Assembly: GCA_021731145.1 (NCBI GenBank)
Contig: JAKFXX010000007.1
Location: forward strand, 72,108 to 136,107
Direction of reading: 5' to 3'
Source: Gammaproteobacteria bacterium
GTDB lineage: Bacteria; Pseudomonadota; Gammaproteobacteria; Ga0077554; Ga007554
DNA: 64,000 bases
Shown here: positions 2,576 to 56,268 of the stretch, piece after piece
How the letters are laid out: each line of letters starts with the position of its first letter
Position numbering within the stretch: position 1 is the stretch's first letter
Notes under the pieces: generated by a model
What the model was told of the DNA's origin: nothing
Seen by the model: only the letters and a program-made list of their open reading frames with translations
The model's database searches: none
Position numbers and translations under genes: made by a program

Positions 2576-4186
2576 ATGAAGCGTATTTTTTGTGCGGTGT
2601 TGTACGCCAGTTTTTTTTTCTGGTTTCCGGCGATGGCGCAAGAACAGGCCCCGGCCCCGGCAGAAGAGCAGCCGGTGGTGTTCGATGTGATGGAATACCG
2701 TGTGGAGGGCAACACGGTGTTGCCTGCCATAGTGATCGAGAAGGTGCTTTATCCGCATTTGGGCACGGCAAAAAAGATCGAGGACGTGGAAAAGGCGCGC
2801 GTTGATCTGGAGAAGGCCTACCGCGATGAAGGTTATCCCACCGTGCTGGTGGATATCCCCGAGCAGGATGTGAACAACCGGATGGTGCGCTTGCGCGTGA
2901 CGGAGAGCAAGGTCGAGAAGGTGCGTGTTGTCGGCTCCCGTTACTATTCGCAGGGGCGGATCCTGGAAAAATTCCCGGCGCTGACGCAGGGCGGTGTGCT
3001 GTATCTGCCGGATGTGCAGAAAGGCTTGAGCCGAGTCAACCGCAGCGCGGACCGGCGCGTGACGCCGATACTCAGGCCGGGCAAGACGCCAGGCACCGTG
3101 GAGGTTGATTTCAAGGTTGAAGACAAGCTGCCGCTGCATGCAAGCCTGGAATTGAATGACCGTTACAGCGGCAATACCAGCCCATTGCGGATGATCGGCA
3201 TGGTGCGCTATGACAATCTGTGGCAGCGAGAGCACAGCTTGAGTGTGCAATATCAGACCGCGCCGGAAAAGACCAGCGAAGTCAGTGTATTTTCCGCGTC
3301 TTATTTGTTGCCGGTGCCGGATTCCGACAGGTTGATCGCGATGTACGCCGTGCGTTCACGCAGCGATGTGGCGGCGGTGGGGAATATATCGGTGCTGGGT
3401 CAGGGTGATATTTTCGGCGTGCGCGCCATCCTGCCGCTGCCGCAGCGTGATCGCTTTTTTCATTCCTTGTCATTGGGCTTCGATTACAAGGATTTCAAGG
3501 AAAACGTGACACTGCTTGGCGCGGATTCCATCCGTACCCCGATCAGCTATTTGCCATTTACAGTGCAGTATAACTCGACTTTGCAGGGTGATAGCGGCGT
3601 GACGCAGGCGGATGTGGGGCTGAATTTTTCTGTCCGCGGCCTCGCCGACAACAGGATTGACTGTTTCGGGCAGCACGTTAACGAATTCGAATGCAAGCGC
3701 TATAACGCCAAGCCCAGTTATCTGTATCTGAAGGCCGGTTTGCAGCGCGTGCAACAGTTGCCGCTGGGTCTGCGGCTGATCGCGAGGATCGACGGTCAAT
3801 TGACGGGCCAGCCCCTGATCAGCAATGAGCAATTCGGCGCAGGCGGTGTTGAAAGCGTGCGCGGTTATCTGGAGTATGAGCGATTGGCGGATAACGGCGT
3901 GCGTGGCAGCGTGGAATTGCGCAGCCCCTCGGTTGCCGCGAAGTTGTCAAAGAAATTCGACGACCTGTATTTTCTCGGATTTGCGGAGGGCGCAAAGCTG
4001 CGTGTTAGTGAGCCCCTGCCGGGCCAGGTGTCACGTTTCAGTTTGTCCAGCGCGGGTGTTGGCGTGCGCTTTAAAGGTTGGCGTTACTGGAATGCGTCGC
4101 TCAATGTGGCGGTGCCGTTCGAGAATGCAGCCTTCACAAAGGCCGGGGATGTACGGGTGCATTTCCGGATGGCGTATGAATTTTAG
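2576..4186 (+). CDS. TpsB transporter (ShlB/FhaC/HecB-family outer-membrane hemolysin activation/secretion protein)
   Basis: Signal peptide MKRIFCAVLYASFFFWFPAMA. POTRA-type start VFDVMEYRVEGNTVL. Size 536 aa. Beta-barrel-like C-terminus ending in YEF. Lies immediately upstream of a TPS-domain exoprotein. Confidence 0.9.
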   Translation: MKRIFCAVLYASFFFWFPAMAQEQAPAPAEEQPVVFDVMEYRVEGNTVLPAIVIEKVLYPHLGTAKKIEDVEKARVDLEKAYRDEGYPTVLVDIPEQDVNNRMVRLRVTESKVEKVRVVGSRYYSQGRILEKFPALTQGGVLYLPDVQKGLSRVNRSADRRVTPILRPGKTPGTVEVDFKVEDKLPLHASLELNDRYSGNTSPLRMIGMVRYDNLWQREHSLSVQYQTAPEKTSEVSVFSASYLLPVPDSDRLIAMYAVRSRSDVAAVGNISVLGQGDIFGVRAILPLPQRDRFFHSLSLGFDYKDFKENVTLLGADSIRTPISYLPFTVQYNSTLQGDSGVTQADVGLNFSVRGLADNRIDCFGQHVNEFECKRYNAKPSYLYLKAGLQRVQQLPLGLRLIARIDGQLTGQPLISNEQFGAGGVESVRGYLEYERLADNGVRGSVELRSPSVAAKLSKKFDDLYFLGFAEGAKLRVSEPLPGQVSRFSLSSAGVGVRFKGWRYWNASLNVAVPFENAAFTKAGDVRVHFRMAYEF

Positions 4187-18121: not shown

Positions 18122-19660
18122 ATGGCAATTAAGAAATTAGGTGTTACCGTCTTATCTCTCGCATTGTTCAATCCATCCGCGTGGGCTGGAGAAAAAGAAG
18201 ATCTTGAAAAACTGCGCGGAACTACCAAAGGACTGATTCAAATTCTGGTGGAGCAGGGCGCGATTACCAAGGAAAAGGCCGGGGAGTTAATACGCGAGAT
18301 CGAGAAATCTCCCACGGAAACGGAAACACCGGAAGAAGAAGTAGATAAGAAAACCGTGCGCGTGCCTTACGTGTCTGAAACGGTCAAGCAGGAAATGACG
18401 GAGCAGATCCGGATGGATGTGCTGGCACAAGCCAAGCGGGAACAGTGGGGCAAGCCCGGCGCAATCCCTGAGTGGGCACAGAAAATAAGGTGGGAAGGCG
18501 ATTTTCGCTTGCGTTCACAGAGCGATATGTTTCAGAGCGACAACTTTAACCTCCTGCCAAACTATCTGGAGATTAACCGGGTTGGCGGTCCGGCGAATAC
18601 GGATAATCCCTTTCTGAATACTACTAATGACCGGGAGCGTTTACGGTTGCGGGCAAGGCTGAGCATGCTCGCCGAAGTCACGCAAGGGGTCACGGCGGCA
18701 TTCCGTCTGGCCACCGGTAGTGCCAATGATCCTGTTTCGACCAACCAGACATTGGGCAATATGGGCAATCGTTTTAATTTTATGCTTGATCAAGCCTACA
18801 TCAAGCTGGAGCCTTATCAATGGTTGACGCTGGTGGGTGGCAAGATACCCAATCCCTGGTTTGGCACCGACCTGGTGTGGGACGAGGATCTTAACTTCGA
18901 TGGCGCCGCCGTGCAATTCAAACCGCGCATCGGCAACGAACTGGTATGGTTCTCAACGCTGGGTGCTTTTCCGTTGCAGGAAATCGAGCTGTCGAAAAAG
19001 GACAAATGGCTATACGGTGCGCAGACCGGTGTCGATTGGAATCGAAGCCAGTTCAGGGCGAGATTTGGCGTGGCTTATTATGACTACCAGAATATCACCG
19101 GGCAAAGAAAAGCGCCCAATGATCCTTCTCAGGATTTTACCGCGCCGCAGTTTATGCAGAAAGGTAATACCTTGTTTGATATTTCACAAACTCAAAACAG
19201 TGGCAGGTACGCGCTTGCATCTGAATACAAAGAATTGAACATAACCGCCAACCTCGATATATACACATTTTCCCCGGTACACATCACGCTGACAGGCGAT
19301 TATGTCAAGAATATTGGGTTTAAAAAAGAAGACATAGTGCAGCGTACCGGGAGAGATGTCGACCAGCAGAATCAGGCATATTTGGGCAGGGTTGCTGTCG
19401 GCATGCCGAGGATCAAGCATCGCCACGACTGGCAGGTGTTCGGTGGTTATAAACACCTGGAAAGCGACGCCGTATTGGATGCCTTCACAGATTCCGATTT
19501 CCATCTGGGGGGCACCAATGCCAAAGGCTGGATCGCGGGCGGTAGCTATGGTGTTGCCACCGATACCTGGCTGACACTGCGCTGGTTGAGCGCGGATCAG
19601 ATAGTTGGGCCGCCGCTTGCCATCGACGTTATGCAACTTGATTTGAACGTGAGATTTTGA
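18122..19660 (+). CDS. Putative porin-like outer-membrane beta-barrel with an N-terminal charged/coiled segment
   Basis: Signal peptide ...LFNPSAWA. About 90 aa of Glu/Lys-rich helix. Alternating beta-strand-like sequence follows. The terminal LDLNVRF carries an OMP-type C-terminal Phe. Confidence 0.65.
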   Translation: MAIKKLGVTVLSLALFNPSAWAGEKEDLEKLRGTTKGLIQILVEQGAITKEKAGELIREIEKSPTETETPEEEVDKKTVRVPYVSETVKQEMTEQIRMDVLAQAKREQWGKPGAIPEWAQKIRWEGDFRLRSQSDMFQSDNFNLLPNYLEINRVGGPANTDNPFLNTTNDRERLRLRARLSMLAEVTQGVTAAFRLATGSANDPVSTNQTLGNMGNRFNFMLDQAYIKLEPYQWLTLVGGKIPNPWFGTDLVWDEDLNFDGAAVQFKPRIGNELVWFSTLGAFPLQEIELSKKDKWLYGAQTGVDWNRSQFRARFGVAYYDYQNITGQRKAPNDPSQDFTAPQFMQKGNTLFDISQTQNSGRYALASEYKELNITANLDIYTFSPVHITLTGDYVKNIGFKKEDIVQRTGRDVDQQNQAYLGRVAVGMPRIKHRHDWQVFGGYKHLESDAVLDAFTDSDFHLGGTNAKGWIAGGSYGVATDTWLTLRWLSADQIVGPPLAIDVMQLDLNVRF

Positions 19661-19717
19661 CCTGTGTATTTTTTAGAGTCACGGAACACGGCCGGGACCA
19701 GACAGGAGGTGAATGTC

Positions 19718-20416
19718 ATGATCCGTCATAAAGGATGGCTTCTGCTTGTAATGTTCACTCTAGGGTTGGCCGGAAATGCCGCTGCGGATTCCGGTGACAA
19801 AAAAGAACGCGAGGCGCTAAGAAAAATGCGCCTCATGATACAGACGTTTGAACAGGAAAAATCGGCGCTGCAGCAGGAAAACAATAGCCTGAACGAGAAA
19901 GTGAAGGCACTGGGTAGCCAGGTCGGTGACATCAAAAGCGCTTCCACAGGCCAGATCAGGAAAAAAGATGCTCGTTTGGGCGAGGTTGAAAAGGAACTGG
20001 TTGCTGTCAAACAGGAAAATCAGTTTCTGGTAGCCAAGCTGCAAAGTACCCAGCAGAGTCTGGAAGAATTGACGCTGAAGCACAAGGAGGTTGTTCAGGC
20101 CGCGCAAAACAGTCTTCAGGACGGCGTCAAGCAAGGCGAGGAGTATAACAATAAGATAAAAGAGGCTGAAGTCAAAATTTCTCAGCAGTCTCAAGCTATT
20201 GACATGTGCGAGAAGAAGAATCTGGCGCTTTACAATCTCAATATGGAGATTCTGGAGAAATACAAGAGTAAGGGTGTTTGGGGATCATTTATTCAGGCTG
20301 AGCCCTTTACGCAAATAAAGCGCGTTGAAATTGAGAATACACTGCAAGAATATAAGGACAAGCTTGACAGCCAAAAAATGGAAAAATCTGGACCCGGCAC
20401 CGGCAAGGGAGGATAG
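19718..20416 (+). CDS. Secreted/periplasmic coiled-coil protein
   Basis: An aggagg RBS precedes ATG 19718. Signal peptide MIRHKGWLLLVMFTLGLAGNAAA. The remainder is heptad-like and rich in Glu/Lys/Gln/Leu. Confidence 0.7.
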   Translation: MIRHKGWLLLVMFTLGLAGNAAADSGDKKEREALRKMRLMIQTFEQEKSALQQENNSLNEKVKALGSQVGDIKSASTGQIRKKDARLGEVEKELVAVKQENQFLVAKLQSTQQSLEELTLKHKEVVQAAQNSLQDGVKQGEEYNNKIKEAEVKISQQSQAIDMCEKKNLALYNLNMEILEKYKSKGVWGSFIQAEPFTQIKRVEIENTLQEYKDKLDSQKMEKSGPGTGKGG

Positions 20417-20472
20417 GAAACGCTGGGGGTAAGTGGCATAATCCCTTGCCGCTACTCTAATAAAATGCATCC

Positions 20473-21162
20473 ATGAGTCCAATTTCACGCCCTGCCTTTA
20501 GCCGTATTTTCCCCTTTGCGATTTATATTGCCTTTTTGGCCATTGCCTCCGGCATGTCCACCTTGCAGGATATGGGCTATATCAAAGACTGGGATTTGCG
20601 CTGGCTCTATCCTGTCAAGGTGGGTTTGGTGTTGCTGGCGCTGCTAGGGTTATGGCGCCATTATTCTGAACTTTCCAGGCCAGCCAATGTAAAGGCGGGG
20701 GACTGGATCGTTGCCGGGATCACGGGTGTTGTGGTTTTTGTGATCTGGATTAACCTGGACCAGGCGTGGGCGACAATGGGCAGCGAGTCACGCGGCTTCA
20801 GTCCGGTATCAGAAGGGGGCGAAATTGACTGGATACTGGTGGCATTCCGTCTGATAGGCGCGGCTATGATAGTGCCTGTCATGGAGGAGTTGTTCTGGCG
20901 TTCGTTTGTGATGCGCTGGATAGATAACCCGGATTTTCTTCGCATCAATCCAGCTCAAATCAGCATTAAGTCGTTTGTTATAGCTTCGGTACTTTTTGGT
21001 ATCGAACACAATCTGTGGCTGGCGGGCATCATTGCCGGGATTGCCTATGGTTGGCTATACAAGCGCAGTGCCAATCTTTGGGTTCCTGTATTTTCACATG
21101 CCGTCACCAACGGCCTGCTTGGCATCTGGGTGATCTATTCCGGAAATTGGCAGTTCTGGTGA
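20473..21162 (+). CDS. CPBP (CAAX-type) intramembrane metalloprotease, resembling the PEP-CTERM-associated subfamily
   Basis: Multi-TM protein with the motifs EELFWRSF, FGIEH and HAVTN. Confidence 0.85.
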   Translation: MSPISRPAFSRIFPFAIYIAFLAIASGMSTLQDMGYIKDWDLRWLYPVKVGLVLLALLGLWRHYSELSRPANVKAGDWIVAGITGVVVFVIWINLDQAWATMGSESRGFSPVSEGGEIDWILVAFRLIGAAMIVPVMEELFWRSFVMRWIDNPDFLRINPAQISIKSFVIASVLFGIEHNLWLAGIIAGIAYGWLYKRSANLWVPVFSHAVTNGLLGIWVIYSGNWQFW

Positions 21163-21359
21163 AACATCCTTAGCAGTCCTTCCTCTCGGGAAAGCCGCGC
21201 CTTTTTACCCCCTCCTCCTTTGGCTGATAGCCCATAAATTATTCGGCCGCTGTACGTAATCAGATTGTCATATTGACGGACTATTATTGCCCCCAGGTTA
21301 CATAGCTTTTAACGCCAGCGCATCCTTAATAACCGGCACTGCATTCTACGGAGATTAAC

Positions 21360-22133
21360 TTGAGAAAAATATTGTGTCTCATGGCGTGCGCCATTCTTGC
21401 TGCGTGCTCGGTAAATCCGCCAGCACATACCGGCAATGAAGAAATTCTCAATAAACTTGGGGAAATGAGCAAGCAGATCACTACGCTGAGTGATGATGTC
21501 AGCGTGATCAAGAAAGCGTTGGCCGTTGCGATGGGCGGCGCACCTGAGCAGCCGAAACCACCCGTTATTACTACGATTGATCTCGATGACGCCTCCCCTG
21601 TGAGGGGTGATGAAAATGCCACGGTGGCAATTGTTGAGTTTTCAGATTACCAGTGCCCATTTTGCGGCCGCTTTCATGCGCAGGTTCTACCCAGCCTGAA
21701 GAAAGCATATATAGATGCCGGGAAAGTCCGGCATATTTTTCGTGATTTTCCGCTTGATTTTCACCCTCAAGCAAAGGATGCGAGCATTGCTGCGAACTGT
21801 GTTGGTGAGCAGAAGGCCTATTGGGAGATGCACGACAGTTTGTTTGCAAATCAAAATCGCCTTGGCGCCGCTTTATATGAAGAGCTTGCTAAAAAGATGA
21901 ATCTTGATATGGCCTCTTTTCAAGCATGCCTGAAGAATGCGAAGCAGGCGGAAAAAATTGAGAAAGACCTGTCTTATGGGCAAAGCCTTGGGATAGACGG
22001 AACCCCCAGCTTTTTCATTGGACGCATTGAAGGCAAGAAGCTTGTGGATGTTAAGCAGATAGTAGGCGCACAGCCCCCGGCAGTGTTTGCCCAGGCAATT
22101 GAGGCTGCCTTGGGGGGCGCGCCTAAAAATTGA
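21360..22133 (+). CDS. DsbA-family thiol:disulfide oxidoreductase lipoprotein
   Basis: Lipobox LAACS (TTG start 21360; alternative ATG 21381). Thioredoxin active site YQCPFCGRF. Confidence 0.85.
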   Translation: MRKILCLMACAILAACSVNPPAHTGNEEILNKLGEMSKQITTLSDDVSVIKKALAVAMGGAPEQPKPPVITTIDLDDASPVRGDENATVAIVEFSDYQCPFCGRFHAQVLPSLKKAYIDAGKVRHIFRDFPLDFHPQAKDASIAANCVGEQKAYWEMHDSLFANQNRLGAALYEELAKKMNLDMASFQACLKNAKQAEKIEKDLSYGQSLGIDGTPSFFIGRIEGKKLVDVKQIVGAQPPAVFAQAIEAALGGAPKN

Positions 22134-22185
22134 TGGCTGTTTTACTTACGAGATGAGTCCTCAGAGTAAGTGATATTTGATTTGT

Positions 22186-23382
22186 ATGCCCATTTACCAT
22201 TATAGCGCCTTGACAGAACGCGGCGTTTTGGCCGCAGGCGAGGGGGTTGCCACCTCGAGCGAAGCTTTACGCCAGGAATTGGTGGCGAAGGGTCTGCTGG
22301 TACAAGACATCCGTCAAAAAAACTCTGGATTGGGCTTGCGCCTAAAGCGCATCAAAGCGGAGGAATTTCTGCTGTTTAACCAGGAGTTTGTGGCACTCAT
22401 ACGCGCGGGTTTGACAATACCCGACGCCTTGAAAATAGCGGCGGATCGTCCTGATAGCCCGATGTTGGCCAGCCTCCTGCGGCACGTGAATGAAGAGGTG
22501 CATGGTGGTGCGTTACTTTCCGAAGCCTGCTCCAGGCACCCCGAGGTATTCGATGGTCTTTACGTCTCTGCGATAAAAACCGGCGAAAAGACCGGCGTGC
22601 TGGCGACGGTTCTGGAGAAATATCAAGCCTACCTCAAACGCCGGGTTGGTTTGCAGAAAACCATTTCACATGCGCTGACCTATCCGGTGTTTTTGTTGCT
22701 GGTGTTAGGCACGGTGCTGGGTGTGCTGTTTTTGTTTGTCATGCCGCGTTTTGTTGCGATGTATACCGATTTTGGCGCTGAACTGCCGCTACCCACACAA
22801 ATTCTCGTTACCTTGGTAAATAATTTGCCTTTTTATTTACCCGTGGTGTTATTGCTGGGCACGCTCGGATGGTTCGCCATCCAAGCCTGGGTAAAGACCG
22901 ATGCAGGGCGTCTGCGGGCAGATCATTTGAAGGGACGGCTGCCGATACTGGGGAAGGTCTATCAGGATATTGCCATCGTGCAACTGGTGCGGACGCTTGC
23001 CACCCTGCTCTCCGGTGGTACGCCCTTGGTCGAGGCCATGCGCATCACGCAGGATTCACTTACCAATCGCGCCAAGGCGCGTGCGTTGGCTCAGGCCGAA
23101 AACCTGGTGATGGGGGGGCAAAGCCTGGCGTCTGCCATGCGCAATACGCAACTCATGCCGGGAACGGCAATAAAGATGATTGAGGTGGGCGAGGCGTCGG
23201 GTGGGCTTGATGCCATGCTGGAGGAAATCGCCCAGTTCTATGAGGAAGTACTGACTAATAAACTTGCACGCATGACAGCATTGATTGAGCCTTTATTGAT
23301 GCTGATCATGGGCGTCATGATAGGCGGCACGATCATCGTGATGTATTTGCCGATCTTTCAGATTGCGGACATCGTCAAATGA
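22186..23382 (+). CDS. gspF: Type II secretion / type IV pilus platform protein (GspF/PilC family)
   Basis: About 400 aa with a duplicated T2SS-F architecture and three TM segments. Its stop overlaps the next start (ATGA). Confidence 0.9.
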   Translation: MPIYHYSALTERGVLAAGEGVATSSEALRQELVAKGLLVQDIRQKNSGLGLRLKRIKAEEFLLFNQEFVALIRAGLTIPDALKIAADRPDSPMLASLLRHVNEEVHGGALLSEACSRHPEVFDGLYVSAIKTGEKTGVLATVLEKYQAYLKRRVGLQKTISHALTYPVFLLLVLGTVLGVLFLFVMPRFVAMYTDFGAELPLPTQILVTLVNNLPFYLPVVLLLGTLGWFAIQAWVKTDAGRLRADHLKGRLPILGKVYQDIAIVQLVRTLATLLSGGTPLVEAMRITQDSLTNRAKARALAQAENLVMGGQSLASAMRNTQLMPGTAIKMIEVGEASGGLDAMLEEIAQFYEEVLTNKLARMTALIEPLLMLIMGVMIGGTIIVMYLPIFQIADIVK

Positions 23383-25097
23383 GCCATCCCTTCAGTTACC
23401 GGAGGTTAGGAGAAATCCTGCTGGGCAAGCAGTATGTCAGCCATCATCAGATAGATGCCGTCCTGACAGGCAAAAAGGGCCGGCTGGGCGAGGTGTTGCT
23501 TGATGAAGGCCGCATTACGCCAGCGCAGTTGGCCGAGGCTCTGGCAGAACAGTGCGGCTTACCCTATGTTGACCTGGAGGGATTTGTTATTTCGCCAGAG
23601 TTGTACAGCTTGATATCTGCAACGCACGCCTATCAGTATGGGGTTGTTCCCTACCAGAGAGACGGAGAAGTGTTGATCGTTGTTGTTTCTCCCCCCTGCG
23701 ATATTACTTTGGCCGACCGCCTGGAATGTTTGAGCGGTTTACAGGTGCGCCTATTTGCCAGCAGTCCACAAGCGATTGCAGCGGTGTTGAAGCGCAGCGA
23801 AGGGAATTCCGAGGTACTGAAAGGCGTCTCCGAGGATTTCAAGCTTGCCATCGTCAAGGAGAATGACGATGGCAAGGAGCAATACGTGTCATTGGATGCG
23901 GCCAATGAAGATGCCGCAAGCCCGGTTATAAAGCTCATTAACAGCATGCTGTCGGCGGCCATTCAAAAGCGTGTCAGTGACGTACATATAGAGACCTACG
24001 AAAAAGGCATCTCGGTCAATTACCGTATCGATGGTGTTTTATACCCCGCGACCGATACGCTCGACCGGCGCCATCAGAGCGCGTTGGTGTCGCGCCTCAA
24101 GGTGATGGCGGAGTTGGATATCGCCGAAAAAAGGGTACCCCAGGATGGACGATTCAAGTTGCGCTTTGGTTCGCGTGACATAGATTTCAGGGTATCCATC
24201 CTGCCCAGTGTGTTCGGTGAAGATGTGGTTATCCGGATTCTGGACAAATCATCCATCACCGATGGGATGAAGAATCTACGTCTGGAAAGCTTGGGAATGG
24301 CACCTGAAATCCTGAAAAAATTTCGCAAGAGTATCCATGAACCCTATGGCATGGTGCTGATTACCGGCCCCACGGGCAGTGGAAAAACGACCACGCTGTA
24401 TGCGGCGCTCAGCGAATTGAATACCGGTGATGAAAAGATCATTACCATCGAAGATCCGGTCGAATATCAATTGCACGGCATCGTGCAAATCGCGGTAAAC
24501 GAGAAAAAAAATCTTACCTTTGCCAAGGGGCTGCGTTCCATACTGCGGCATGATCCTGACAAGATCATGGTAGGTGAAATACGCGATGGAGAAACAGCGC
24601 AGATTGCCGTTCAATCGGCGCTGACGGGGCATCTGGTGTTCACAACGGTGCATGCTAATAGTGCTTTCGATGTGCTCGGGCGCTTCAGCCATATGGGAGT
24701 GGATACGTATAACTTTGTTTCGGCGCTCAATTGCGTCATGGCACAACGCCTGGTTCGAATCATTTGCCCGAAATGCAAGCGTCAAACCGCGGTTGATGAT
24801 GACATTCTGGAGCTGTCCGGGCTCGATCCTGCACAATATCAAGATCAAGCATGGTACGAAGGCGCCGGCTGTGATTACTGCCACGGCACGGGTTATCGCG
24901 GCCGTGCCGCCGTTACCGAGTTTCTCGCTTTGTCGCCATCCATCCGCCAGATGATCATAGAACGGCGTCCGATCAATGAGATGCAGGCGGCGGCGGTGCA
25001 GAATGGGATGGTCACATTACGTCAATCCGCACTGGCGCTGGTGCTTTCAGGCCAGGCGACGCTGAAAGAGATTAATCGTGTCACTTTCGTTGAATAA
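23379..25097 (+). CDS. gspE: Type II secretion / type IV pilus assembly ATPase (GspE/PilB family)
   Basis: N-terminal T2SS-E N-domain (LGEVLLDEGRITPAQLAEALAEQ). Walker A GPTGSGKTTT. Tetracysteine CPKC...CDYC. Confidence 0.95.
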   Translation: MSHPFSYRRLGEILLGKQYVSHHQIDAVLTGKKGRLGEVLLDEGRITPAQLAEALAEQCGLPYVDLEGFVISPELYSLISATHAYQYGVVPYQRDGEVLIVVVSPPCDITLADRLECLSGLQVRLFASSPQAIAAVLKRSEGNSEVLKGVSEDFKLAIVKENDDGKEQYVSLDAANEDAASPVIKLINSMLSAAIQKRVSDVHIETYEKGISVNYRIDGVLYPATDTLDRRHQSALVSRLKVMAELDIAEKRVPQDGRFKLRFGSRDIDFRVSILPSVFGEDVVIRILDKSSITDGMKNLRLESLGMAPEILKKFRKSIHEPYGMVLITGPTGSGKTTTLYAALSELNTGDEKIITIEDPVEYQLHGIVQIAVNEKKNLTFAKGLRSILRHDPDKIMVGEIRDGETAQIAVQSALTGHLVFTTVHANSAFDVLGRFSHMGVDTYNFVSALNCVMAQRLVRIICPKCKRQTAVDDDILELSGLDPAQYQDQAWYEGAGCDYCHGTGYRGRAAVTEFLALSPSIRQMIIERRPINEMQAAAVQNGMVTLRQSALALVLSGQATLKEINRVTFVE

Positions 25098-26034
25098 TCT
25101 GTTTGACAGTATTGCACCGCGCTCTAAAGCCGTTTTTGGAATCGGCATCGGCAGGGATCGTCTTTCTGCCGCGCATGTTGTTACTACAAAACAGGCGAGA
25201 CATATCGAACGGATCAGGCAGATAAATCTGCCTTTCACACTATTCAGTGGCACCCCTACGCCCGAGATAGGTCATGGGCTTTCATCCTTGTTGGGCGAGT
25301 TATGCGGTGAAGTCAAAAGGTCGCATATTCCCATTCAGATCGCATTGCCTGACCCGGTGGTGAGCTTGCGTGTCTTCGAGTTGGGTGCCATTCCTAAAAC
25401 CAGAAAAGAGCAACTGGCGCTTGTCCACTGGCGGTTCAACAAGGAGTTGAATTTGGGGGGGCGCGCCATTGAATGCAGTTGCCAGCCTTTGGGCGTGGAT
25501 AACGACAAACATCTCTTGTTGGCGATGGCTATCGATCAGGCTTGGTTGGATTGCCTGAAGGAGGCGTGCCGGGACGCGGGTGTGATCAGTACGGTCATCG
25601 ACATGGCGGCGTGTTATCGCTCTAACCGTTTTTACGAACGCTTCTCTTGCGATGGCGCCGATGTAGTTGTTATTTCATTGGATGACGACGCCTGGACAGT
25701 GTCCATTTCGGACGCGCAAGGCCGTTTACGCTTTGTCCGCTCGCGTTGGCGTGAAACCATGCCGGAGCGGGAGAGGGAATATCAGGAAATAGCCGCCGAG
25801 TCAGAAAAGATGGTGCGCCTCTATGCGCATGCCGCCCCTGGCCGGAGCATAAAAAACATACACGCAATAGGTGATGCCAAGGATGTCTCTGGGGTCGCGG
25901 ATTTATTGGATCAACGCATGGCGGGGAAATGTATCAGGGTGGCCGGAGGAGTCGAGTTTATATCTAAGCAAGGCGTGTCCGGAAATACTGTAGACAGTAT
26001 GGTGTCAACCCTGTCGGCAACGGTGTTGCGATGA
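25078..26034 (+). CDS. PilM/GspL-like cytoplasmic assembly protein (actin-like fold inferred)
   Basis: Position and size fit. N-terminus AVFGIGIGRDRLSAAHVV resembles the PilM phosphate-1 strand. GTG start overlaps the gspE end. Confidence 0.45.
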   Translation: MSLSLNNLFDSIAPRSKAVFGIGIGRDRLSAAHVVTTKQARHIERIRQINLPFTLFSGTPTPEIGHGLSSLLGELCGEVKRSHIPIQIALPDPVVSLRVFELGAIPKTRKEQLALVHWRFNKELNLGGRAIECSCQPLGVDNDKHLLLAMAIDQAWLDCLKEACRDAGVISTVIDMAACYRSNRFYERFSCDGADVVVISLDDDAWTVSISDAQGRLRFVRSRWRETMPEREREYQEIAAESEKMVRLYAHAAPGRSIKNIHAIGDAKDVSGVADLLDQRMAGKCIRVAGGVEFISKQGVSGNTVDSMVSTLSATVLR

Positions 26035-26573
26035 AAATCATAACGAATTTTTCGACGTCATCCGCTGGCATGGCGCCGCGGATCATGATGATATTGTGGG
26101 CAACGGCGTTGCTGGCCGCGCTGTTAGCCGCTGGGATGGCTATGCAAACATCCCAATTGAAACAGACGAAGCTGGACTTGGAGCGTCAATTGTCAAAACT
26201 CCAAAACAGGCACGTCGCTGGGATCCCGAAAGTATTTCCCCGTCATGAAGAGCTTGTCACGTTAAAGAAGCGCATAGACGCTGTTTCATCCATATCAAAT
26301 AGTGGGGAAGGGTCACTATCCGCGTTCCTGAGAAAAATAGAGCTGCTATTGCCTGACGAAGCCTATCTTGTGACACTTCACTACAAGGGAGATACCAGGG
26401 AGGCTCAGATTACGGCTGAGGCAGGCAGCGCAAAAATACTTACCGGTTTTTTGCGTGATCTTGAAAAAGAGAAAAGCTTCCTTGAAGTTTTGCTGACAAA
26501 ACAGTCGCAGCGCACATTGAACGATAAGCAGATTGTTCAGTTCGATCTGCGTATAAAGGAGCGTCTTTCATGA
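26031..26573 (+). CDS. PilN/GspL-C-like bitopic inner-membrane assembly protein
   Basis: Single TM IMMILWATALLAALLAAGMA followed by a coiled segment and a ferredoxin-like-sized periplasmic domain. 4-bp overlap with neighbours on both sides. Confidence 0.5.
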   Translation: MKIITNFSTSSAGMAPRIMMILWATALLAALLAAGMAMQTSQLKQTKLDLERQLSKLQNRHVAGIPKVFPRHEELVTLKKRIDAVSSISNSGEGSLSAFLRKIELLLPDEAYLVTLHYKGDTREAQITAEAGSAKILTGFLRDLEKEKSFLEVLLTKQSQRTLNDKQIVQFDLRIKERLS

Positions 26574-27139
26574 AGGCGACGCATCCTTTTGCGGAAAACA
26601 TATGGTATTCGCTACGCCATCCCCTGATCAAGGCGGGGATGGCGGCTAGCGGGGCCGCCATAACCCTGGCCATTGTAGTCTGTTTTGGATATTGGATGCC
26701 CGTGCGTAACGATATCAACAGCCTCTCTGAATCGGTTAATCTCGAACGTAAGCGGATTGTTGATGATACGCGTTCCGTGCAAATTTATAACGCATATTTG
26801 AGCGCTATAAAACAGCTTTCGGCCATTGATAAAAAAATTAACAGCCCTGCCGGTCATGCAGATCTTGTGAATAATATTGATAGTATCGCAATACAAAGAA
26901 AAGTAACGATTATTTCTGAATCCTACGATGAGGGTAAAGAAAGGAATGGTTACACGTCGCTGTATATGGAGTTGGCATTACAGGGAGACTATCAGGGGCT
27001 GAATGAATTTCTTGTTGATATTCGTGGCCTGCCAACCTGGACTGTTGTTGGGGAAGGGTCGATAAGCCGCTTGGCAGGACAGCAGGATTTGGTTAAGGCG
27101 CAATTGCGTTTAATAACTTATCACAAGACGGGAATATGA
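26570..27139 (+). CDS. PilO/GspM-like bitopic inner-membrane assembly protein
   Basis: Single TM AASGAAITLAIVVCFGYW, a coiled segment and a periplasmic domain. Translationally coupled to neighbours. Confidence 0.5.
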   Translation: MKATHPFAENIWYSLRHPLIKAGMAASGAAITLAIVVCFGYWMPVRNDINSLSESVNLERKRIVDDTRSVQIYNAYLSAIKQLSAIDKKINSPAGHADLVNNIDSIAIQRKVTIISESYDEGKERNGYTSLYMELALQGDYQGLNEFLVDIRGLPTWTVVGEGSISRLAGQQDLVKAQLRLITYHKTGI

Positions 27140-27768
27140 AAAGTTACAAGGAAGTAGCCATCAGACATCGCAATGCAATATTGCTGGTGATGGCTTTTGT
27201 CTTGATGGCCGCCAACGTATTGAATTGGGGCGCATGGGGTCAGGTCAATTCTCGGGAAGCGCCTGGAAGGGGATCAACGGCAGGGGGGTTCCAGGTTTCT
27301 GATTTTCAGATAAAAAATATGAATGTGCCTGAGGAGAAAGATAGCGCGATTGGCCGTGACTTGTTCTATCCTGTTTTTGAAGAATATTCAGAACCTGTTA
27401 AAGAAATAACATCCATTGCGGAGGATAATGAAAATATTAAACAAATAACTGATGCCGAGATACCTCCTCCCCTTCCGCAAAAAACTCCTGAACAACTTGA
27501 AGAGGAGATCGCACGGTCCGATGCCGCTAATTTTAAATATATTGGTACGATTTGGCGTGGAGGACAAGGCCAGGCGCTTTTGGTGAACACGGACAAGCGT
27601 TATTTCGTCTTTTCTGGAGACAAGGCAGGCAGCCGATTCGTTGTTGAAATGATAACGAACGACGCGGTCTCTCTAAGAGACCCTGTCACAAACGTGACGG
27701 CTCAAGTACTAATATCGGGAGGACCCGCATTAAAAGCGGCTCAAGAGACAAGTGACATTGAAAGATAG
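27136..27768 (+). CDS. PilP/GspC-HR-like protein
   Basis: N-terminal TM AILLVMAFVLMAANVL. C-terminal beta-sandwich-like FKYIGTIWRGGQGQALLVN...GDKAGSRFVVEMITNDAVSLRD. Lies immediately upstream of the secretin. Confidence 0.45.
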   Translation: MKSYKEVAIRHRNAILLVMAFVLMAANVLNWGAWGQVNSREAPGRGSTAGGFQVSDFQIKNMNVPEEKDSAIGRDLFYPVFEEYSEPVKEITSIAEDNENIKQITDAEIPPPLPQKTPEQLEEEIARSDAANFKYIGTIWRGGQGQALLVNTDKRYFVFSGDKAGSRFVVEMITNDAVSLRDPVTNVTAQVLISGGPALKAAQETSDIER

Positions 27769-27774
27769 CGTAAA

Positions 27775-30057
27775 ATGAAACCGATAAAAAAAATAATATG
27801 TTATTTCATGGTGGTAGTGTTGTGCCTGTTGGTTGCATCTTGTGCCGGTCCGATTCGAAAGGCGGAAAACTATGAGGATAAACAGGAATGGATAAATGCG
27901 GTAATTGAGTACCGAAAGGCCTATAACGATGAGCCAAGGAACGTGGAATATAAGTCACGTCTGAAGCATGCCGAATTCAAGGCGGCCGACTATTATTACC
28001 ATCAAGGTATGCTACTTTTGGAGCGGGAAAAAATCGATGAAGCCATAGTTCAACTCCAGCAGGGCTTGACTGCAATGCCCGGTGATGAGCGGCTAATGCA
28101 GGCGATGAACAAAGCGCTTTCAAAAAGAGAGGCCAACAATCTTTATCAAGAAGGAGTTCTGATAGAAGGCGCGGGCAATGCCGACGAAGCGAAGCGCATA
28201 TTCCAAAGGGCCGTAAATGTCTATCCTGATCACAAAGCGGCATCAGAGGCCCTTGCCAATCTTGAAAATAAAAAAATCAAGGAGCGTGATACCGAGAAAT
28301 TCTCGTTGACTTCAGCATCCCCCATTTCGCTGAATTTCCGTCAAGCCGATATGCGCTCAGTTTTTGAGTTCGTTGCCAAATCATTTGGCATAAATATCAT
28401 ATTTGATGAGGCCATCAAGACCATATCCCCCGTCACGGTATTTGCCAAGGATGTTTCCTTCGAGCAAGCTTTGGCCCTGATTAATGTGGCAACCAAAACC
28501 TTCTATAAGAAAATCAGCAAAAATACCATCATAATTGTGCCGGATTCAAAGGACAAGCGTGGTCAATATGAAGATCATATGATGCGTACCTTTTATTTGA
28601 GCACTGTCCGGGCCAAGGAGGCGGCGGATATCCTGAGAGGTGTGATGACAATAAGGAAAATGATCGTCAACGAACCGTTAAATACGCTGGTTGTCCGTGA
28701 TACCGAGGAAGTTATCAGGCAGGTGGAAAAGATTATTGATGTAAACGACAGAAAGCCCGCTGAAATAGTTCTGGAAGTTGAGATCCTGGAGATGAATCGC
28801 ACCAAGGCAGAGCGTCTTGGCCTTGATCTTGGGTCGTATCAAATCAGCGCTGCGGTTCCGTCAGCCATCGCCCTGAGTGGATCCATTAGCGGCGCGATTG
28901 AGAAGGCTTCGCTACTTACGCTTCCTTCGGCGACCTTCAGGTTTTTTAAGCAGGATGTAGATGCCAGGACGCTTGCCAATCCCAAGGTAAGGGTTGTGAA
29001 CGGAAAATCCGCAAAAATCCATATTGGCGACCGTGTGCCGTTACGTGTTTCCACGATCATCAATACGACGGGGCAGGTGAACACAACTTATGATTACAAA
29101 GACATTGGTATAAAGCTTAGCGTTGAACCAACCATAAATCTGGACAATTCATCATCAGTAAAGCTTGGTTTGGAAGTGAGCTCCCTGGGGGCTAATCTGG
29201 GAACGGCGACAGAGCCGGCATTCCTTATCGGTAGCCGAAATGCTGAAACTTTTATGCTGTTGCGTGATGGTGAAACAGCGATTCTGGGCGGTCTTATTCG
29301 TGATGAGGATCGCAAGACGGTAGTAAGGGTTCCATTACTGGGAGACATTCCTGCCGCAGGTTCTCTATTTAGTTCTTACGATATGTCGAAGGGGCGCACC
29401 GACGTGTTGTTGACCATCACGCCTCGTGTTGTGCGAGGCTGGGATCTGCCCGCCAAGGAAGTCCGCCAGTTTTATTCTGGCACCGAAGATAAATATCTTG
29501 ATCAAGCGCCCTTTCAGAGCCTCGCTTCTCCATCATCGGCTGCGGTAAAGGAGGATGCCGGGATTCAGGAGTCCCCGCAGGCACCTGTTAACGAAAGTCC
29601 GGCGGCACCCCCATTGCCAGGCCAGTCGATTGCGCCAGGTATTGGGGGGAATGTTATCCAGTCTCCCGCGCTCGGCTTTTCTAAGCCAGCTTATATGGTC
29701 ATCAATCAAGATGAGGTGGATGTTCAGATTCTTTTTGACAACCTCGCAAAAAACAGGGAGATCGCCACGGAAATACAATTCAATTCAAAGGTGCTGGAAT
29801 TTGTCGGGGGTGATGCGGGCGAATTCAAAGTTGGTTTTTTTCAGGCCGACAAAAATGAGGCAGGAGATGCTGTACGTCTAAGCGCCGGGCTTGCAAATGA
29901 TGCCGTCTCGAAAGAGAAAGGTATTCTGGCAACCCTCCGGTTCCGTGCCTTGAAGCCAGGTGTTTCTGCTCTCACGTATGGTGCCTCATCGGTCAAAAAT
30001 GCGGCGGGTGACATCATTAATCCACAGTCAAATATCTCACGTGTCATTGTACGCTAG
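27775..30057 (+). CDS. gspD: Secretin (GspD/PilQ family) lipoprotein with N-terminal TPR module and C-terminal cohesin-like domain
   Basis: Lipobox LLVASCAG. TPR-like repeats (YRKAYNDEPRN..., AKRIFQRAVNVYPDHKAA). N-domain ISLNFRQADMRSVFEFVAKSFGINIIFDE. Secretin core RVPLLGDIPAAGSLFS. Pro-rich linker. C-terminus EIQFNSKVLEFVGGDAGEF...GILATLRFRALKPGVSAL. Confidence 0.9.
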   Translation: MKPIKKIICYFMVVVLCLLVASCAGPIRKAENYEDKQEWINAVIEYRKAYNDEPRNVEYKSRLKHAEFKAADYYYHQGMLLLEREKIDEAIVQLQQGLTAMPGDERLMQAMNKALSKREANNLYQEGVLIEGAGNADEAKRIFQRAVNVYPDHKAASEALANLENKKIKERDTEKFSLTSASPISLNFRQADMRSVFEFVAKSFGINIIFDEAIKTISPVTVFAKDVSFEQALALINVATKTFYKKISKNTIIIVPDSKDKRGQYEDHMMRTFYLSTVRAKEAADILRGVMTIRKMIVNEPLNTLVVRDTEEVIRQVEKIIDVNDRKPAEIVLEVEILEMNRTKAERLGLDLGSYQISAAVPSAIALSGSISGAIEKASLLTLPSATFRFFKQDVDARTLANPKVRVVNGKSAKIHIGDRVPLRVSTIINTTGQVNTTYDYKDIGIKLSVEPTINLDNSSSVKLGLEVSSLGANLGTATEPAFLIGSRNAETFMLLRDGETAILGGLIRDEDRKTVVRVPLLGDIPAAGSLFSSYDMSKGRTDVLLTITPRVVRGWDLPAKEVRQFYSGTEDKYLDQAPFQSLASPSSAAVKEDAGIQESPQAPVNESPAAPPLPGQSIAPGIGGNVIQSPALGFSKPAYMVINQDEVDVQILFDNLAKNREIATEIQFNSKVLEFVGGDAGEFKVGFFQADKNEAGDAVRLSAGLANDAVSKEKGILATLRFRALKPGVSALTYGASSVKNAAGDIINPQSNISRVIVR

Positions 30058-50572: not shown

Positions 50573-50777
50573 AGGGCGTGTGACGCCTTCCCCGCCGGGT
50601 AGAGGGGAAGCGCGAACGCAGTGAGAAGTAGGGTTCTGGCGCAGTGATGATTTAACGTTGGACTTGACTGGAAGTGCGTAGCGCCGTCCAGGCGGACGAA
50701 TCGCTTGCTTTGCATGGCGAGTTCCAAGCCCATCACCGGCAATCATCAACCCACCACACTGGAATCCTCAAGTCCAA

Positions 50778-50877
50778 TGTAGGGTGGACACGCTTTTTGT
50801 GTCCACCAGGCGTTGCGCAGCAACACAATGCCCAATTCCATTCGGCGCAATGCGCTGTCGCTTATTGGCGCCCTACA
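50778..50877. repeat. Composite REP element (tgtagggtggacac...ccaccaggcgttgcgcagcaacacaat...ggcgccctaca)
   Basis: Internal hairpin ggtggacacgctttttgtgtccacc. Shares the ccaccaRgcgttgcgYagcaacacaat core with 56191-56246. Confidence 0.65.
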
Positions 50878-51117
50878 TAGTGCGCGTTACCGCGTTGATG
50901 GGTATCAGACAGGAAGCAGTCGTAGAATTTGAATCAAAGCTATCGGCTTATCAGGCAGCAGTCTGCCACGATCTTCTAGTCGCGCCGCACCTTTGGTTTT
51001 TCCAATAGCGGTCGCTCTGGCAGAAAAATCATAGATTGATCTTGCGCGTGCCAAGTCAGTTATTCATCCTTCGGTTTATCATAACGCCAAATAGAGATTT
51101 CGTTAGAAAGCGCTATA

Positions 51118-51494
51118 TGAAAATAATATCACTGCAATTGTCTAACATTCTGAGCTTCAGATACTTCGACAACGTTGGAAATGCCGAGAGCATCAGTTTT
51201 GATGATGATCTCAATATCATTATCGGGGAAAACGGATCAGGTAAATCAACGGCTCTGGAGGTCGTAAACTTCCTGTTCAGGCGCGTACTCTATAAACAGT
51301 ACAACCTCAATCAAGACCTATACACTCAGCGGAACAGTATCAACACTGATCAGCGCAAACAAATTCTCCTACCTGAGCATGTCGGCTGGCGGGTTTCATC
51401 AGAACATGCAAACCAGCAGTGGCAGGTAAGGCATCGCATATCGAGAAAAAAGCAATGTCAGAGCATGTGCGCGTGTCATGGGGCGGCTATTTAA
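51118..51494 (+). pseudogene. Truncated N-terminal fragment of an SMC/OLD/ABC-like P-loop ATPase
   Basis: MKIISLQLSNILSFRYF...LNIIIGENGSGKSTALEVVNF (Walker A). Recognisable sequence stops after about 90 aa near 51380. The rest of the ORF is unrelated read-through and collides with a convergent gene. Confidence 0.55.
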
Positions 51495-52503
51495 CAGCTA
51501 AAGCACGAACTATCATTTGCTGTACTTCTGTTGTGGCGTGAAGTGGGTTCAATTCAACCTCTGGGTGCGATGAAGCGAACACCCTAAAAATTTCGTCAGC
51601 AAAAGCTTGGCCGATTTCTTCCACTCCAGTGAAATCCAGAACTACAGTCTTGAATTTCTCAAAGCGAGATACCAGACGCTTTGCCTGTGAGCGTGAAACA
51701 AGCTTCTCACCTTCATGGCGAGCCAATCGAACCGGAACAATAGTTTTGCTGAAAGTAAATTCGTCTGGTTCAGAAAACTGTGCGTAGACCGAATTAAGCG
51801 TACGCTGGCTATCGTTATCCAGCTTCAATAACACGCGCGTCCCCGGAATATCCCTGTCGCCATCTATTAGCCAGTCACCCTGCTCTGCCATGTGCGAGAA
51901 ATTAAGCGTACGCGACATAATTACGAATGAATCAAAAGCCCGAGAGGTAAAAAATATACCCTCACCAGAATGGTTGGCTGGATCTGTTGTGAACTTTCCT
52001 TTTGCCAGTTCCAGGATCGCCTCTCTAGCATCGTAAAGTTTTGCTAGCCGTTGAATACGATAAAAAATGCCTTCCCCGTCATCGTTAATCCAAATCTCTA
52101 CATCGAGCGCGGTGCGTTCGAAGTGAACCGTAAGCATAGTCCCTTCGGAATGATCTATGGCATTATTGATCATCTCCGTGACGCCGTAATGCCACATATT
52201 GCGCACATTTTCTGGCAGGTCGGCCAGGAGTGGCGCCAGCTTTTCAAGCCAAACTATATCCTCCCTCAAGCCAGCCAAGGGGAATTCCCAAGATTTCTCA
52301 ATTAATGGGATAAGCCATGAAGCCTTTATGTTTCCTTTGCCAGAAGAACTAATCAACTTTTCGCTCTCAAGAGCGTGAAGATGACGGCTTGCGGCTTGCT
52401 TTGAAATGCCAAAATGCCGTGCTGTTTCAGAAGCAACATTGCGCGCCTTGTTTCGGCACATTTTCAGCATGAATTGTCTAATTTCGGATGTTTTCGTTCT
52501 CAT
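51487..52503 (-). CDS. wHTH + GHKL (SpoIIAB-like) ATPase + STAS-like DUF4325 fusion protein
   Basis: N-terminal HTH ARHFGISKQAASRHLHALESEKLI. N-box EMINNAIDHSEG. G-box-like HSGEGIFF. C-terminus VVLDFTGVEEIGQAFADEIFRVF is typical of DUF4325. Confidence 0.7.
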   Translation of the reverse strand: MRTKTSEIRQFMLKMCRNKARNVASETARHFGISKQAASRHLHALESEKLISSSGKGNIKASWLIPLIEKSWEFPLAGLREDIVWLEKLAPLLADLPENVRNMWHYGVTEMINNAIDHSEGTMLTVHFERTALDVEIWINDDGEGIFYRIQRLAKLYDAREAILELAKGKFTTDPANHSGEGIFFTSRAFDSFVIMSRTLNFSHMAEQGDWLIDGDRDIPGTRVLLKLDNDSQRTLNSVYAQFSEPDEFTFSKTIVPVRLARHEGEKLVSRSQAKRLVSRFEKFKTVVLDFTGVEEIGQAFADEIFRVFASSHPEVELNPLHATTEVQQMIVRALAVK

Positions 52504-52563
52504 GGCTCGTCAACAAGATATGTATCCTCCGGCAAAGCCGGGAGGCTCCGCAAATGAACACTA

Positions 52564-52616
52564 TCGACAACAATTTTACACTATATCGACAACATTAGAA
52601 GAATTTTTCGACAACA
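52564..52616. promoter_or_regulatory. Three direct repeats of tcgacaaca at exact 22-bp spacing
   Basis: Copies at 52564-52572, 52586-52594 and 52608-52616, lying 60-115 bp upstream of the minus-strand start at 52503. Confidence 0.5.
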
Positions 52617-52717
52617 TTTGAAGTCCCGTAGAAATTTGGCGTCAAACCGCCCAATCTCTTGGTAAAGCTGTTCTCTGAAATAAAGCTGGATCTTCTATTG
52701 TGAGAATGTAACGCCAG

Positions 52718-56167: not shown

Positions 56168-56190
56168 TTCGGCAATAAAGCAGCCAAATG

Positions 56191-56246
56191 TGGTGGTTTC
56201 GCGCTTTTTGCGCAACCCACCAAGCGTTGCGTAGCAACACAATAGC
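56191..56246. repeat. REP element, same family as 50778-50877
   Basis: tggtggtttcgcgctttttgcgcaacccaccaagcgttgcgtagcaacacaat. Confidence 0.6.
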
Positions 56247-56268
56247 TTGAGTTTCCAAAGGCCGCGCA

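Follow-up and report, generated by a model that had tools for sequence, protein, structure and literature searches.

The element described here is an AT-rich islet at positions 50,573 to 52,717 of a stretch of 64,000 nucleotides from a gammaproteobacterial contig (GenBank JAKFXX010000007.1, assembly GCA_021731145.1; the whole stretch is referred to as the window), and it lies between the gene nrdJb and a gene for an IclR-family regulator. On balance, it is probable that the islet combines the dead stub of an OLD-family nuclease gene with a live, autonomous and probably self-repressing one-gene cassette, which encodes a winged helix-turn-helix (wHTH) domain, a GHKL domain and a STAS-like domain in a single chain and belongs to a large, uncharacterised family. 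As predicted from the sequence, this cassette covers about 1.13 kb (51487-52620) and consists of a promoter that is interleaved with three phased repeats, followed by the gene for a protein of 338 residues. In this genome, the islet would be a scar of horizontal transfer that carries a dead nuclease stub and a live orphan regulator, and not the two-gene defence system whose remains had been suspected in an original prediction from the sequence alone.

The single-chain architecture of the 338-residue protein, as it had been originally read, is borne out by Pfam, by an AlphaFold model and by Foldseek, which agree with each other. In the model (51-sequence alignment; predicted local distance difference test, pLDDT, 79.3; predicted template modelling score 0.72), the N-terminal wHTH domain is formed by three helices and a beta-hairpin (alpha1-alpha2-alpha3-beta-beta; helices 2-18, 23-31 and 35-47, strands 51-54 and 61-64) at a pLDDT of 84-95, and the profile matches of this region are weak and all below the respective cut-offs (HTH_20 4e-4, HTH_5 1.4e-3, MarR_2 up to 6e-3, NCBIfam HTH_metalloreg 4e-5). 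Sequence searches of the PDB with the 338-residue protein gave nothing significant. With the model, the top five Foldseek matches in the PDB are all SpoIIAB, with E-values down to 2.1e-5 and target TM-scores of 0.71-0.75, and 1til, 1l0o, 1th8 and 1tid are among these top matches. Within the GHKL domain, the residues E110, N113, N114 and D117 of the N-box, D141, G143 and G145 of the G1 box, and G180 and G182 of the G2-like box are invariant in 51 relatives. In case of the C-terminal module, DUF4325 ('STAS-like') is matched at 9.7e-16 and thus above the Pfam cut-off, and when the model of this module alone was searched (residues 246-338, pLDDT 79), the best PDB matches were the STAS domains of RsbS, prestin, stressosome proteins, SLC26 and YchM, with probabilities of 0.96-1.0 and query TM-scores of about 0.6 (for RsbS 6jhk, E 4.8e-3, probability 1.0 and query TM-score 0.62). 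According to the model, this module has an alpha/beta STAS-like fold, and a Hef (HhH)2 domain, which was the best PDB profile match (E 0.023), was rejected because both the model and Foldseek give that fold. An invariant linker motif, K-T-x-V-P...G-E-x-L-x-S-R-S-Q-A, lies ahead of the DUF4325 match. The public annotation of the same locus (263 residues, P0027; L007 705-1496) starts at an internal methionine, 75 codons late, and cuts off the whole wHTH domain, which means that the DNA-binding domain is missed by the public gene annotation. We prefer the start of the 338-residue frame because the conserved start MRxxTxEIR is common to the relatives.

A second line of evidence comes from the DNA upstream of this gene. 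At the nucleotide level, the window resembles the loci of relatives in two parts only, the coding sequence (51489-52525) and a block of 58 bp apart from it (52561-52619), and the repeat array (Table 1) is kept along with the coding sequence in L005, L012, L013, L017, L156 and L157. In the 64 kb, this array is the sole cluster of matches with zero mismatches or with one mismatch at the first base. Such phased triplets, defined by at least 7 of 10 identical columns at a spacing of 21 or 22 bp, are found 5' of 55 of the 81 family genes (68%) versus 5 of 760 other genes of the same loci (0.7%), exact 6-mer triplets with a spacing of 19-24 bp occur in 46 of 86 upstream regions versus 22 of 1,760 random windows, and four repeats are present in some family loci. 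Repeat motif and recognition helix vary together: a helix with QAA[SA]RH pairs with the repeat GTTGTC (7 of 8 loci), a helix with Q[SAT][AI][SA][ATV][WRK] pairs with YTTACR (11 of 13 loci), and a helix with Q[AG][VI][NHSD][KRQSV][HY] pairs with TTGACA (32 of 42 loci, with no phased motif called in 9 others). As the motif follows the recognition helix in this way and no other gene is conserved nearby, the wHTH domain probably reads its own repeats; the simplest reading is that the array is a predicted operator for the wHTH of the gene itself, and we infer an autoregulation.

The promoter fits into this arrangement. The -10-like hexamer lies directly 5' of repeat 3 and 7 nt past repeat 2, and its assignment rests on positional conservation among relatives, as the counts in a sigma70 promoter scan were at chance level. 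It is found at the identical place in the clade of the window (six loci), with TATAAT, TAGTAT or TAGAAT in five relatives, and a -35-like hexamer TTGnnA is seen just 5' of repeat 2 in several relatives of this clade. An occupation of repeats 2 and 3 should occlude RNA polymerase, which argues for autorepression in the clade of the window. Between the array and the start codon, and in the lineage of the window only, there is in addition a GC-rich hairpin sequence in the leader, which occurs a single time in the window and may affect translation or transcript stability; the predicted fold of the leader has -25.1 kcal/mol (z = -2.15).

Mechanistically, we propose that the protein would bind its own repeat array via the wHTH domain, and as a spacing of two helical turns puts the repeats on the same face of the DNA, this binding would probably be cooperative and oligomeric. 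With repeats 2 and 3 bracketing the -10 box, the bound protein would repress its own transcription. The GHKL domain would bind or hydrolyse ATP, and the STAS-like domain could dock on the GHKL domain in cis, like SpoIIAA on SpoIIAB, so that DNA binding or oligomerisation would be tied to the nucleotide state, to a ligand or to a competing partner, and the partner switch would be collapsed into one chain. We infer this cis interaction of GHKL and STAS-like domains, and its coupling to DNA binding, from the analogy to the known systems. Should this mechanism prove correct, the protein would be the most compact partner switch known, in which one chain senses, switches and reads DNA, and as the operator would co-evolve with the protein, the specificity code of the wHTH domain could be read from the sequence alone. 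To our knowledge, no described protein combines all three partner-switch roles in one chain.

In comparison with the SpoIIAB-SpoIIAA-sigmaF and RsbW-RsbV-sigmaB systems, the SpoIIAB-like central fold with intact N, G1 and G2 boxes is shared, as are the STAS-like module, here at the C-terminus, and a DNA-targeting element as third component. The differences are that all three functions reside in one chain of 338 residues, that the DNA reader is a wHTH domain and not a sigma factor, that no gene for a sigma factor, a phosphatase or a separate antagonist is nearby, that a glutamine is found at the phosphoserine position (by motif register), that the STAS module is reduced to a minimum, having a single N-terminal strand and lacking beta5-alpha4, and that the gene is a solitary mobile cassette with a repeat array of its own. 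Natural fusions of partner-switch parts have been described in Actinoplanes missouriensis, where SipA combines an anti-sigma GHKL domain and a STAS antagonist domain in one chain, and where sigma-SsdA combines a sigma domain and a STAS domain (PMC10733313). These are likened to the present protein by their domain types, and they differ in being two proteins of a sigma-based system, whereas here HTH, GHKL and STAS-like domains are joined in one chain. A protein that joins DNA reader, anti-factor and antagonist in one chain was not found in the literature searched. With respect to DNA recognition, ArsR/SmtB and MarR repressors share the weak wHTH similarity and the overlap of the sites with the promoter of the gene itself, and iteron-type arrays share the reiterated, phased sites. 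In contrast to ArsR and MarR proteins, which act as dimers on inverted repeats, the sites here are three to four direct repeats at 21-22 bp, and the protein carries two large additional domains.

The family to which this protein belongs is large, uniform in length and spread across phyla and prophages, and there is nearly no literature on it. The 338-residue query has matches in more than 7,900 clusters at 90% identity, and an exhaustive search gave 2,659, 1,774 and 793 clusters at 50% identity for E <= 1e-3, 1e-10 and 1e-30, respectively; in the best 150 clusters, nearly all proteins have 335-360 residues and match from end to end. We surveyed 80 genome loci with relatives at 46-78% identity, which span Proteobacteria, Cyanobacteria, Chlorobi, Acidobacteria, Nitrospirota, Actinomycetota, Planctomycetota and a lineage of the candidate phyla radiation, and in addition 59 viral contigs of IMG/VR with full-length relatives. 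In 66 of 72 loci, the GC content of the fusion gene is below that of its flanks, with a mean gap of 8.5 points. In the viral contigs, many copies are found deep inside the contig, and the neighbours include small and large terminases, holin, amidases, tail genes, integrases, serine recombinases and CI-type repressors. A fold search of BFVD gave single-domain matches and no full-length analogue. DUF4325 itself is mentioned in passing in the literature and is never its main subject. From these sequence contexts, the fusion gene appears to behave as a mobile accessory cassette, being solitary, AT-richer than its hosts and located in prophages or small islets, and as it occupies about 1.1 kb with its own promoter and operator, it is easily accessible to experiments.

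The immediate surroundings of the fusion gene vary from locus to locus. An 88%-identity relative (L156) is convergent with the gene for an MmeI-type restriction-modification enzyme, an 85%-identity relative in a Sulfurimicrobium metagenome-assembled genome is a single-gene insert between purM and tauE/ilvA, the gene of Chlorobium phaeobacteroides lies between insertion sequence/reverse transcriptase genes and a type I restriction-modification system, and in one locus the gene is directly 3' of a phage-type integrase. Often the neighbours are housekeeping genes, such as those for tRNA synthetases, PGI, IGPD and Hsp90, and defence- or toxin-type neighbours are sporadic (Fic, JetD, HerA, HsdR, CcdB, HEPN-DUF499). 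When the neighbours were clustered, the most widespread family, a generic TPR family, reached no more than 12 of 83 loci; of the 133 immediate neighbours, at most three belong to any one Pfam family, and a family is common to no more than 3 of 63-70 immediate neighbours. Sigma factors are absent from the top 25 Pfam families of these 133 immediate and of 122 viral neighbours, as well as from the islet, and a PP2C-type phosphatase does not recur among the neighbours. Some local features were noted on the side. In L156, the last 32 bp of the gene (2737-2768) are duplicated about 450 bp downstream (3187-3218), just before the MmeI-type gene, and this duplication may be an insertion scar. A HEPN_Swt1-DUF499 gene is located immediately downstream on the same strand in three loci (L041, L042 and one more), as is a Fic gene in two or three loci (L023, L027), and these placements may be local operon-like pairings in sub-clades.

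The second item of the islet is the open reading frame (ORF) 51117-51494 on the plus strand, which is convergent with the fusion gene and starts with MKIISLQLSNILSF...GENGSGKST. It had been described as a decayed SMC/OLD/ABC-like ATPase with a Walker A motif, and this description holds. The ORF matches AAA_15 (4.5e-10), AAA_23 (9e-10) and also AAA_21, and it matches the PADLOC models of AriA, PtuA and GajA at about 1e-10. In tblastn and in the alignment, the likeness to its relatives is confined to the segment listed in Table 1, i.e. it ends at about codon 111, and the rest of the frame, up to the stop codon at 51494, has no homology. About 18% of a gene of about 620 codons is retained; Walker B, the signature motif and the TOPRIM domain are not there, and with the C-terminal ATPase/TOPRIM parts of two relatives, tblastn matched nothing in the 64 kb. 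As the N-terminal homology is real and the rest of the gene is absent from the 64 kb, the stub is not an artefact of ORF calling, and by its sequence it is a pseudogene remnant of a class-1-like OLD-family ATPase-TOPRIM nuclease gene. It shares the N-terminal ABC-type ATPase head with Walker A with the OLD nucleases (P2 Old, class 1 OLD, Gabija GajA, PARIS AriA, Septu PtuA), and its relatives carry AAA_21 and an OLD-like TOPRIM domain. It differs from them as a truncated pseudogene that lacks a partner: an AriB, GajB or PtuB ORF was not found in the islet, where the unrelated fusion gene is the sole neighbour.

The closest database relatives of this OLD N-terminus are themselves short, all 40 of them having 75-198 residues. 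The contexts of three of them are visible, and in these the fragment is followed by a separate ORF with AAA_15/AAA_21 and an OLD-like TOPRIM domain, so that by sequence each is an OLD-family nuclease gene of about 620 codons that has been split or frameshifted. The positions at which such relatives are split into N-terminal and TOPRIM-bearing pieces differ (e.g. L008 1984-3598, L009 6001-7861). The short lengths may be due to recurrent pseudogenisation, to homopolymer sequencing errors or to a bias of the word-indexed search. A further observation concerns a stretch of 22 nt in the stub (51165-51186, TTCGACAACGTTGGAAATGCCG), which is 82% identical to 52607-52628, i.e. to the outermost repeat of the array and its flank, in the same orientation. 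The cassette lies between these two copies, which are separated by 1,442 bp, and the copy in the stub encodes a conserved FDNVGNA; it could be a chance similarity, a fourth binding site or a recombination scar.

Which other explanations could account for the islet? The original prediction took the stub and the fusion gene for the decayed remains of one horizontally acquired two-gene module with a function in defence or stress. In this proposal, the foreign origin and the ATPase remnant stand, and the module does not; the operator-like repeat array, the solitary and mobile nature of the fusion gene and its occurrence in prophages were not part of it. It is true that the two ORFs overlap by 8 bp, with the ATPase homology ending about 38 bp before the stop codon of the fusion gene, that their low GC contents are equal (0.459 and 0.460), that the stub resembles the defence ATPases AriA, PtuA and GajA, and that the mentioned 22-nt stretch links the stub to the repeat array. 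However, intact pairs of an ATPase gene and a DUF4325 gene were not found elsewhere: a hidden Markov model of the ATPase N-terminus gave no match except at the locus of the window itself, and neither this model nor phmmer searches with OLD C-terminal parts together with a Walker A scan detected an adjacent OLD-type ATPase in any of the 80 genome loci or 59 viral loci (0 of 139), the nearest weak candidates being at least 5 kb away from the fusion gene in two loci. Conversely, the relatives of the stub are solitary OLD-family genes (ATPase and TOPRIM) without a DUF4325 neighbour, the closest relatives of the fusion gene adjoin an MmeI-type enzyme or sit between purM and tauE, and in the PADLOC search, in which the stub matched the three defence models, the fusion protein matched nothing beyond its HTH. 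A common module is thus very unlikely, and to judge from the gene contexts, the stub and the fusion gene are two unrelated items. Even less credible is an ordinary host transcription factor for iclR and the phosphoketolase-like gene, or for nrdJab. Such a role could be derived from the position between these genes, from the DNA-binding domain, and from the annotation of some relatives as 'ArsR family regulator', but the neighbours are different at every locus, the operator motif clusters, within the 64-kb window, only before the gene itself, related genomes have the same trkAH-nrdJab block without the islet, and the GC content of the gene is 10 points below that of the host.

With regard to how the fusion protein works, the switch could also be a classical one, in which the GHKL domain acts as a Ser/Thr kinase on the STAS-like module or the linker, in cis or between subunits, and DNA binding depends on the resulting phosphorylation. 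This would agree with SpoIIAB as best structural match, with the invariant ATP-binding motifs, with the label 'anti-sigma regulatory factor (Ser/Thr protein kinase)' that JGI gives to relatives, and with the invariance of S270, S272 and T254, which belong to a conserved linker, modelled with low confidence, directly ahead of the STAS helix. It is, however, the residue at the canonical acceptor position that speaks against it. Q299 (51607-51609), flanked by I297 and G298, is a glutamine without exception in 51 relatives, and by motif register it appears to sit at the phosphoserine position of SpoIIAA/RsbV, with N49..L53..M56-D57-S58 of SpoIIAA being what we take to be the counterpart of D290..V294..I297-G298-Q299. 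Phosphorylation of a serine at this site would be impossible, as the residue is a glutamine, and a PP2C-type phosphatase does not recur nearby, unlike in classical partner-switch systems. We therefore consider the phosphorylation switch rather unlikely and favour a nucleotide-state switch within one chain; with an invariant glutamine in place of the canonical serine, the switch is more likely driven by the nucleotide state or by a partner. The earlier view of a kinase that is fused with its STAS substrate is hence correct as to the fusion and doubtful as to the phosphorylation. Another alternative concerns the biological role and not the switch: the gene could be a one-gene determinant of phage conflict (defence, abortive infection or superinfection exclusion), with the GHKL domain as effector, the STAS-like domain as inhibitor and the HTH as autorepressor in the style of a toxin-antitoxin system. 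Accessory-gene ('moron') positions in prophages would fit such a role, as would the sporadic defence and toxin-antitoxin neighbours (to which the type I and MmeI-type restriction-modification systems and the OLD stub can be counted), the solitary, AT-rich nature of the gene with its spread across phyla, and the match of its GHKL part to phrog_3364, a phage protein family of unassigned function (3e-7). Moreover, stand-alone DUF4325 genes are reported to be coupled to a group of PIN (VapC-like) toxin genes (PMC5499597), and an accessory region of a Francisella prophage contains a DUF4325 ORF of 112 residues beside a hypothetical protein of 293 residues (PMC7924643). Against this stand the lack of a recognisable killing domain, the mostly housekeeping character of the immediate neighbours and the already mentioned PADLOC result, and we therefore hold such a determinant to be possible, with low confidence. 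A role in phage-host conflict as such is plausible from the context, and we put it forward tentatively; it would take the form, for example, of a kinase or ATPase that is released by a trigger, or of a nucleotide-state sensor that decides on exclusion or abortive infection. The same reserve applies to the widest generalisation, namely that wHTH-GHKL-STAS proteins of about 340 residues may constitute widespread, unrecognised, self-repressing one-gene modules of prophages and islets, which carry a whole partner switch per polypeptide and act in phage-host conflict.

For the preferred explanation, a live self-repressing wHTH-GHKL-STAS cassette beside a dead OLD stub, a number of observations have to be set on the other side of the balance. 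In the window protein, HATPase_c_2 is matched at 1.5e-5 with 25.4 bits, which is 2 below the Pfam gathering score of 27.4 bits; many relatives pass this cut-off. The Foldseek E-values of the STAS module are modest (4.8e-3 and weaker), and nowhere is the model less certain than in this module and the linker (pLDDT 49-79). About 30% of the family loci have no clear triplet under simple scoring, and in the TTGACA clade no convincing -10 box could be placed, and binding may either repress or activate there. The equivalence of Q299 with the phosphoserine relies on a motif register, hhalign of the family profile against SpoIIAA gave no usable alignment, and S270, S272 and T254 are possible alternative phospho-acceptors. 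Finally, tblastn against 50,697 deposited phage genomes and 72,556 plasmids gave no match, not even for the C-terminal domain alone at E <= 1, and since deposited phages and plasmids lack the gene, the link to prophages rests on the predictions of IMG/VR.

Table 1. Positions of the features of the islet within the 64,000-nt window, with the basis of each assignment.
Feature	Position	Strand	Basis
Spacer after nrdJb, in which synteny with relatives ends	50573-50880	.	hairpin 50783-50807 and element of about 60 nt, 50777-50832
AT-rich leader 5' of the OLD stub, assigned to the foreign patch	50881-51116	+	composition profile
Codons 1 to about 111, dead 5' stub of an OLD-family gene for an ABC-type ATPase-TOPRIM nuclease	51117-51449	+	AAA_15, PADLOC, tblastn
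Walker A (P-loop) GENGSGKST of the stub	51225-51251	+	read from the sequence; columns invariant in the alignment with relatives
Intact gene of the 338-residue protein, predicted wHTH + SpoIIAB-like GHKL + STAS-like (DUF4325)	51487-52503	-	Pfam, model, Foldseek, relatives
Predicted minimal STAS-like module, residues 251-338	51490-51753	-	DUF4325 match at residues 273-327
Predicted GHKL (Bergerat-fold) ATP-binding domain, residues 81-243	51775-52263	-	invariant motifs, Foldseek
G2-like box HSGEGIFF	51949-51972	-	GHKL domain
G1 box DDGEG	52069-52083	-	GHKL domain
N-box TEMINNAIDHSEG	52141-52179	-	GHKL domain
Predicted winged HTH, residues 1-75, with recognition helix 35-47 (SKQAASRHLHALE)	52279-52503	-	model, weak Pfam matches
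GC-rich hairpin sequence of about 36 bp in the 5' leader (CCTCCGGCAAAGCCGGGAGG)	52526-52561	-	gap in blastn to L005, L012 and L156
-10-like hexamer TAAAAT between repeats 2 and 3	52573-52578	-	upstream regions aligned by the repeats
Three direct 10-bp repeats, on the gene strand ATGTTGTCGA, ATGTTGTCGA and TTGTTGTCGA	52608-52617, 52586-52595, 52564-52573	-	22-bp spacing

The islet itself is AT-richer than its surroundings, as had been noted at first sight. Each 400-bp window between 50.8 and 52.8 kb has a GC content of 0.43-0.47, versus 0.55-0.63 in both flanks, and for 50881-52717 the value is 0.456, compared to 0.561 for the whole window (z = -2.4 in 1.8-kb windows), with 0.459 for 50881-51486. 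On the nrdJb side, the foreign DNA has a sharp border. The flanking genes nrdJa and nrdJb encode Ribonuc_red and TSCPD domains (NCBI uses the name NrdJb for relatives), and relatives with an NrdJb that is at least 90% identical share a trkA-trkH-nrdJa-nrdJb block at about 91% nucleotide identity. This identity to L159, L160 and L163 breaks off at 50574/50575, i.e. at the nrdJb stop codon, and in those relatives the gene is followed by coaE, or by genes for a trypsin-like protease and a PhoQ-type kinase. As the synteny stops at the stop codon and the genes beyond differ by relative, the region directly 3' of nrdJb is a place of recurrent variation, and with its deviant GC content and this stop of synteny, the islet is horizontally acquired DNA.

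All contigs with an identical NrdJb carry the islet, and all of them are from one study; neither among them nor among more distant relatives was a genome with an empty nrdJb-iclR junction found, and the insertion border is therefore fixed at 50575 only. The OLD gene may have arrived first and have lost its remainder in the course of a later insertion or deletion; alternatively, both pieces may have come together as an already decayed fragment. An integrase ORF, a nearby tRNA or an Rfam match was not detected for the islet, and a transposon-like architecture was rejected, as the far end of the cassette carries no inverted copy of the repeat and notable flanking target duplications are absent. 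The cluster of repetitive extragenic palindromic (REP) elements that had been assumed at 50.58-50.88 kb shrinks to a single perfect 9-bp hairpin (50783-50807) and one intergenic element of about 60 nt, which is present in two copies, each located 3' of genes (50777-50832 and 56190-56247; ...CGCTTTTTG..CCACCA.GCGTTGCG.AGCAACACAAT), where copy numbers refer to this one 64-kb window.

The window has just two troughs of GC content as low as this, the islet and a region at 18.5-29 kb. The latter belongs to a second, larger AT-rich region (18500-30000, GC down to 0.44), which encodes a porin, a DsbA-like protein, components F and E of a type II secretion system (T2SS F and a T2SS E/MshE-type ATPase) and a secretin, i.e. 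proteins in the manner of type II secretion or type IV pili.

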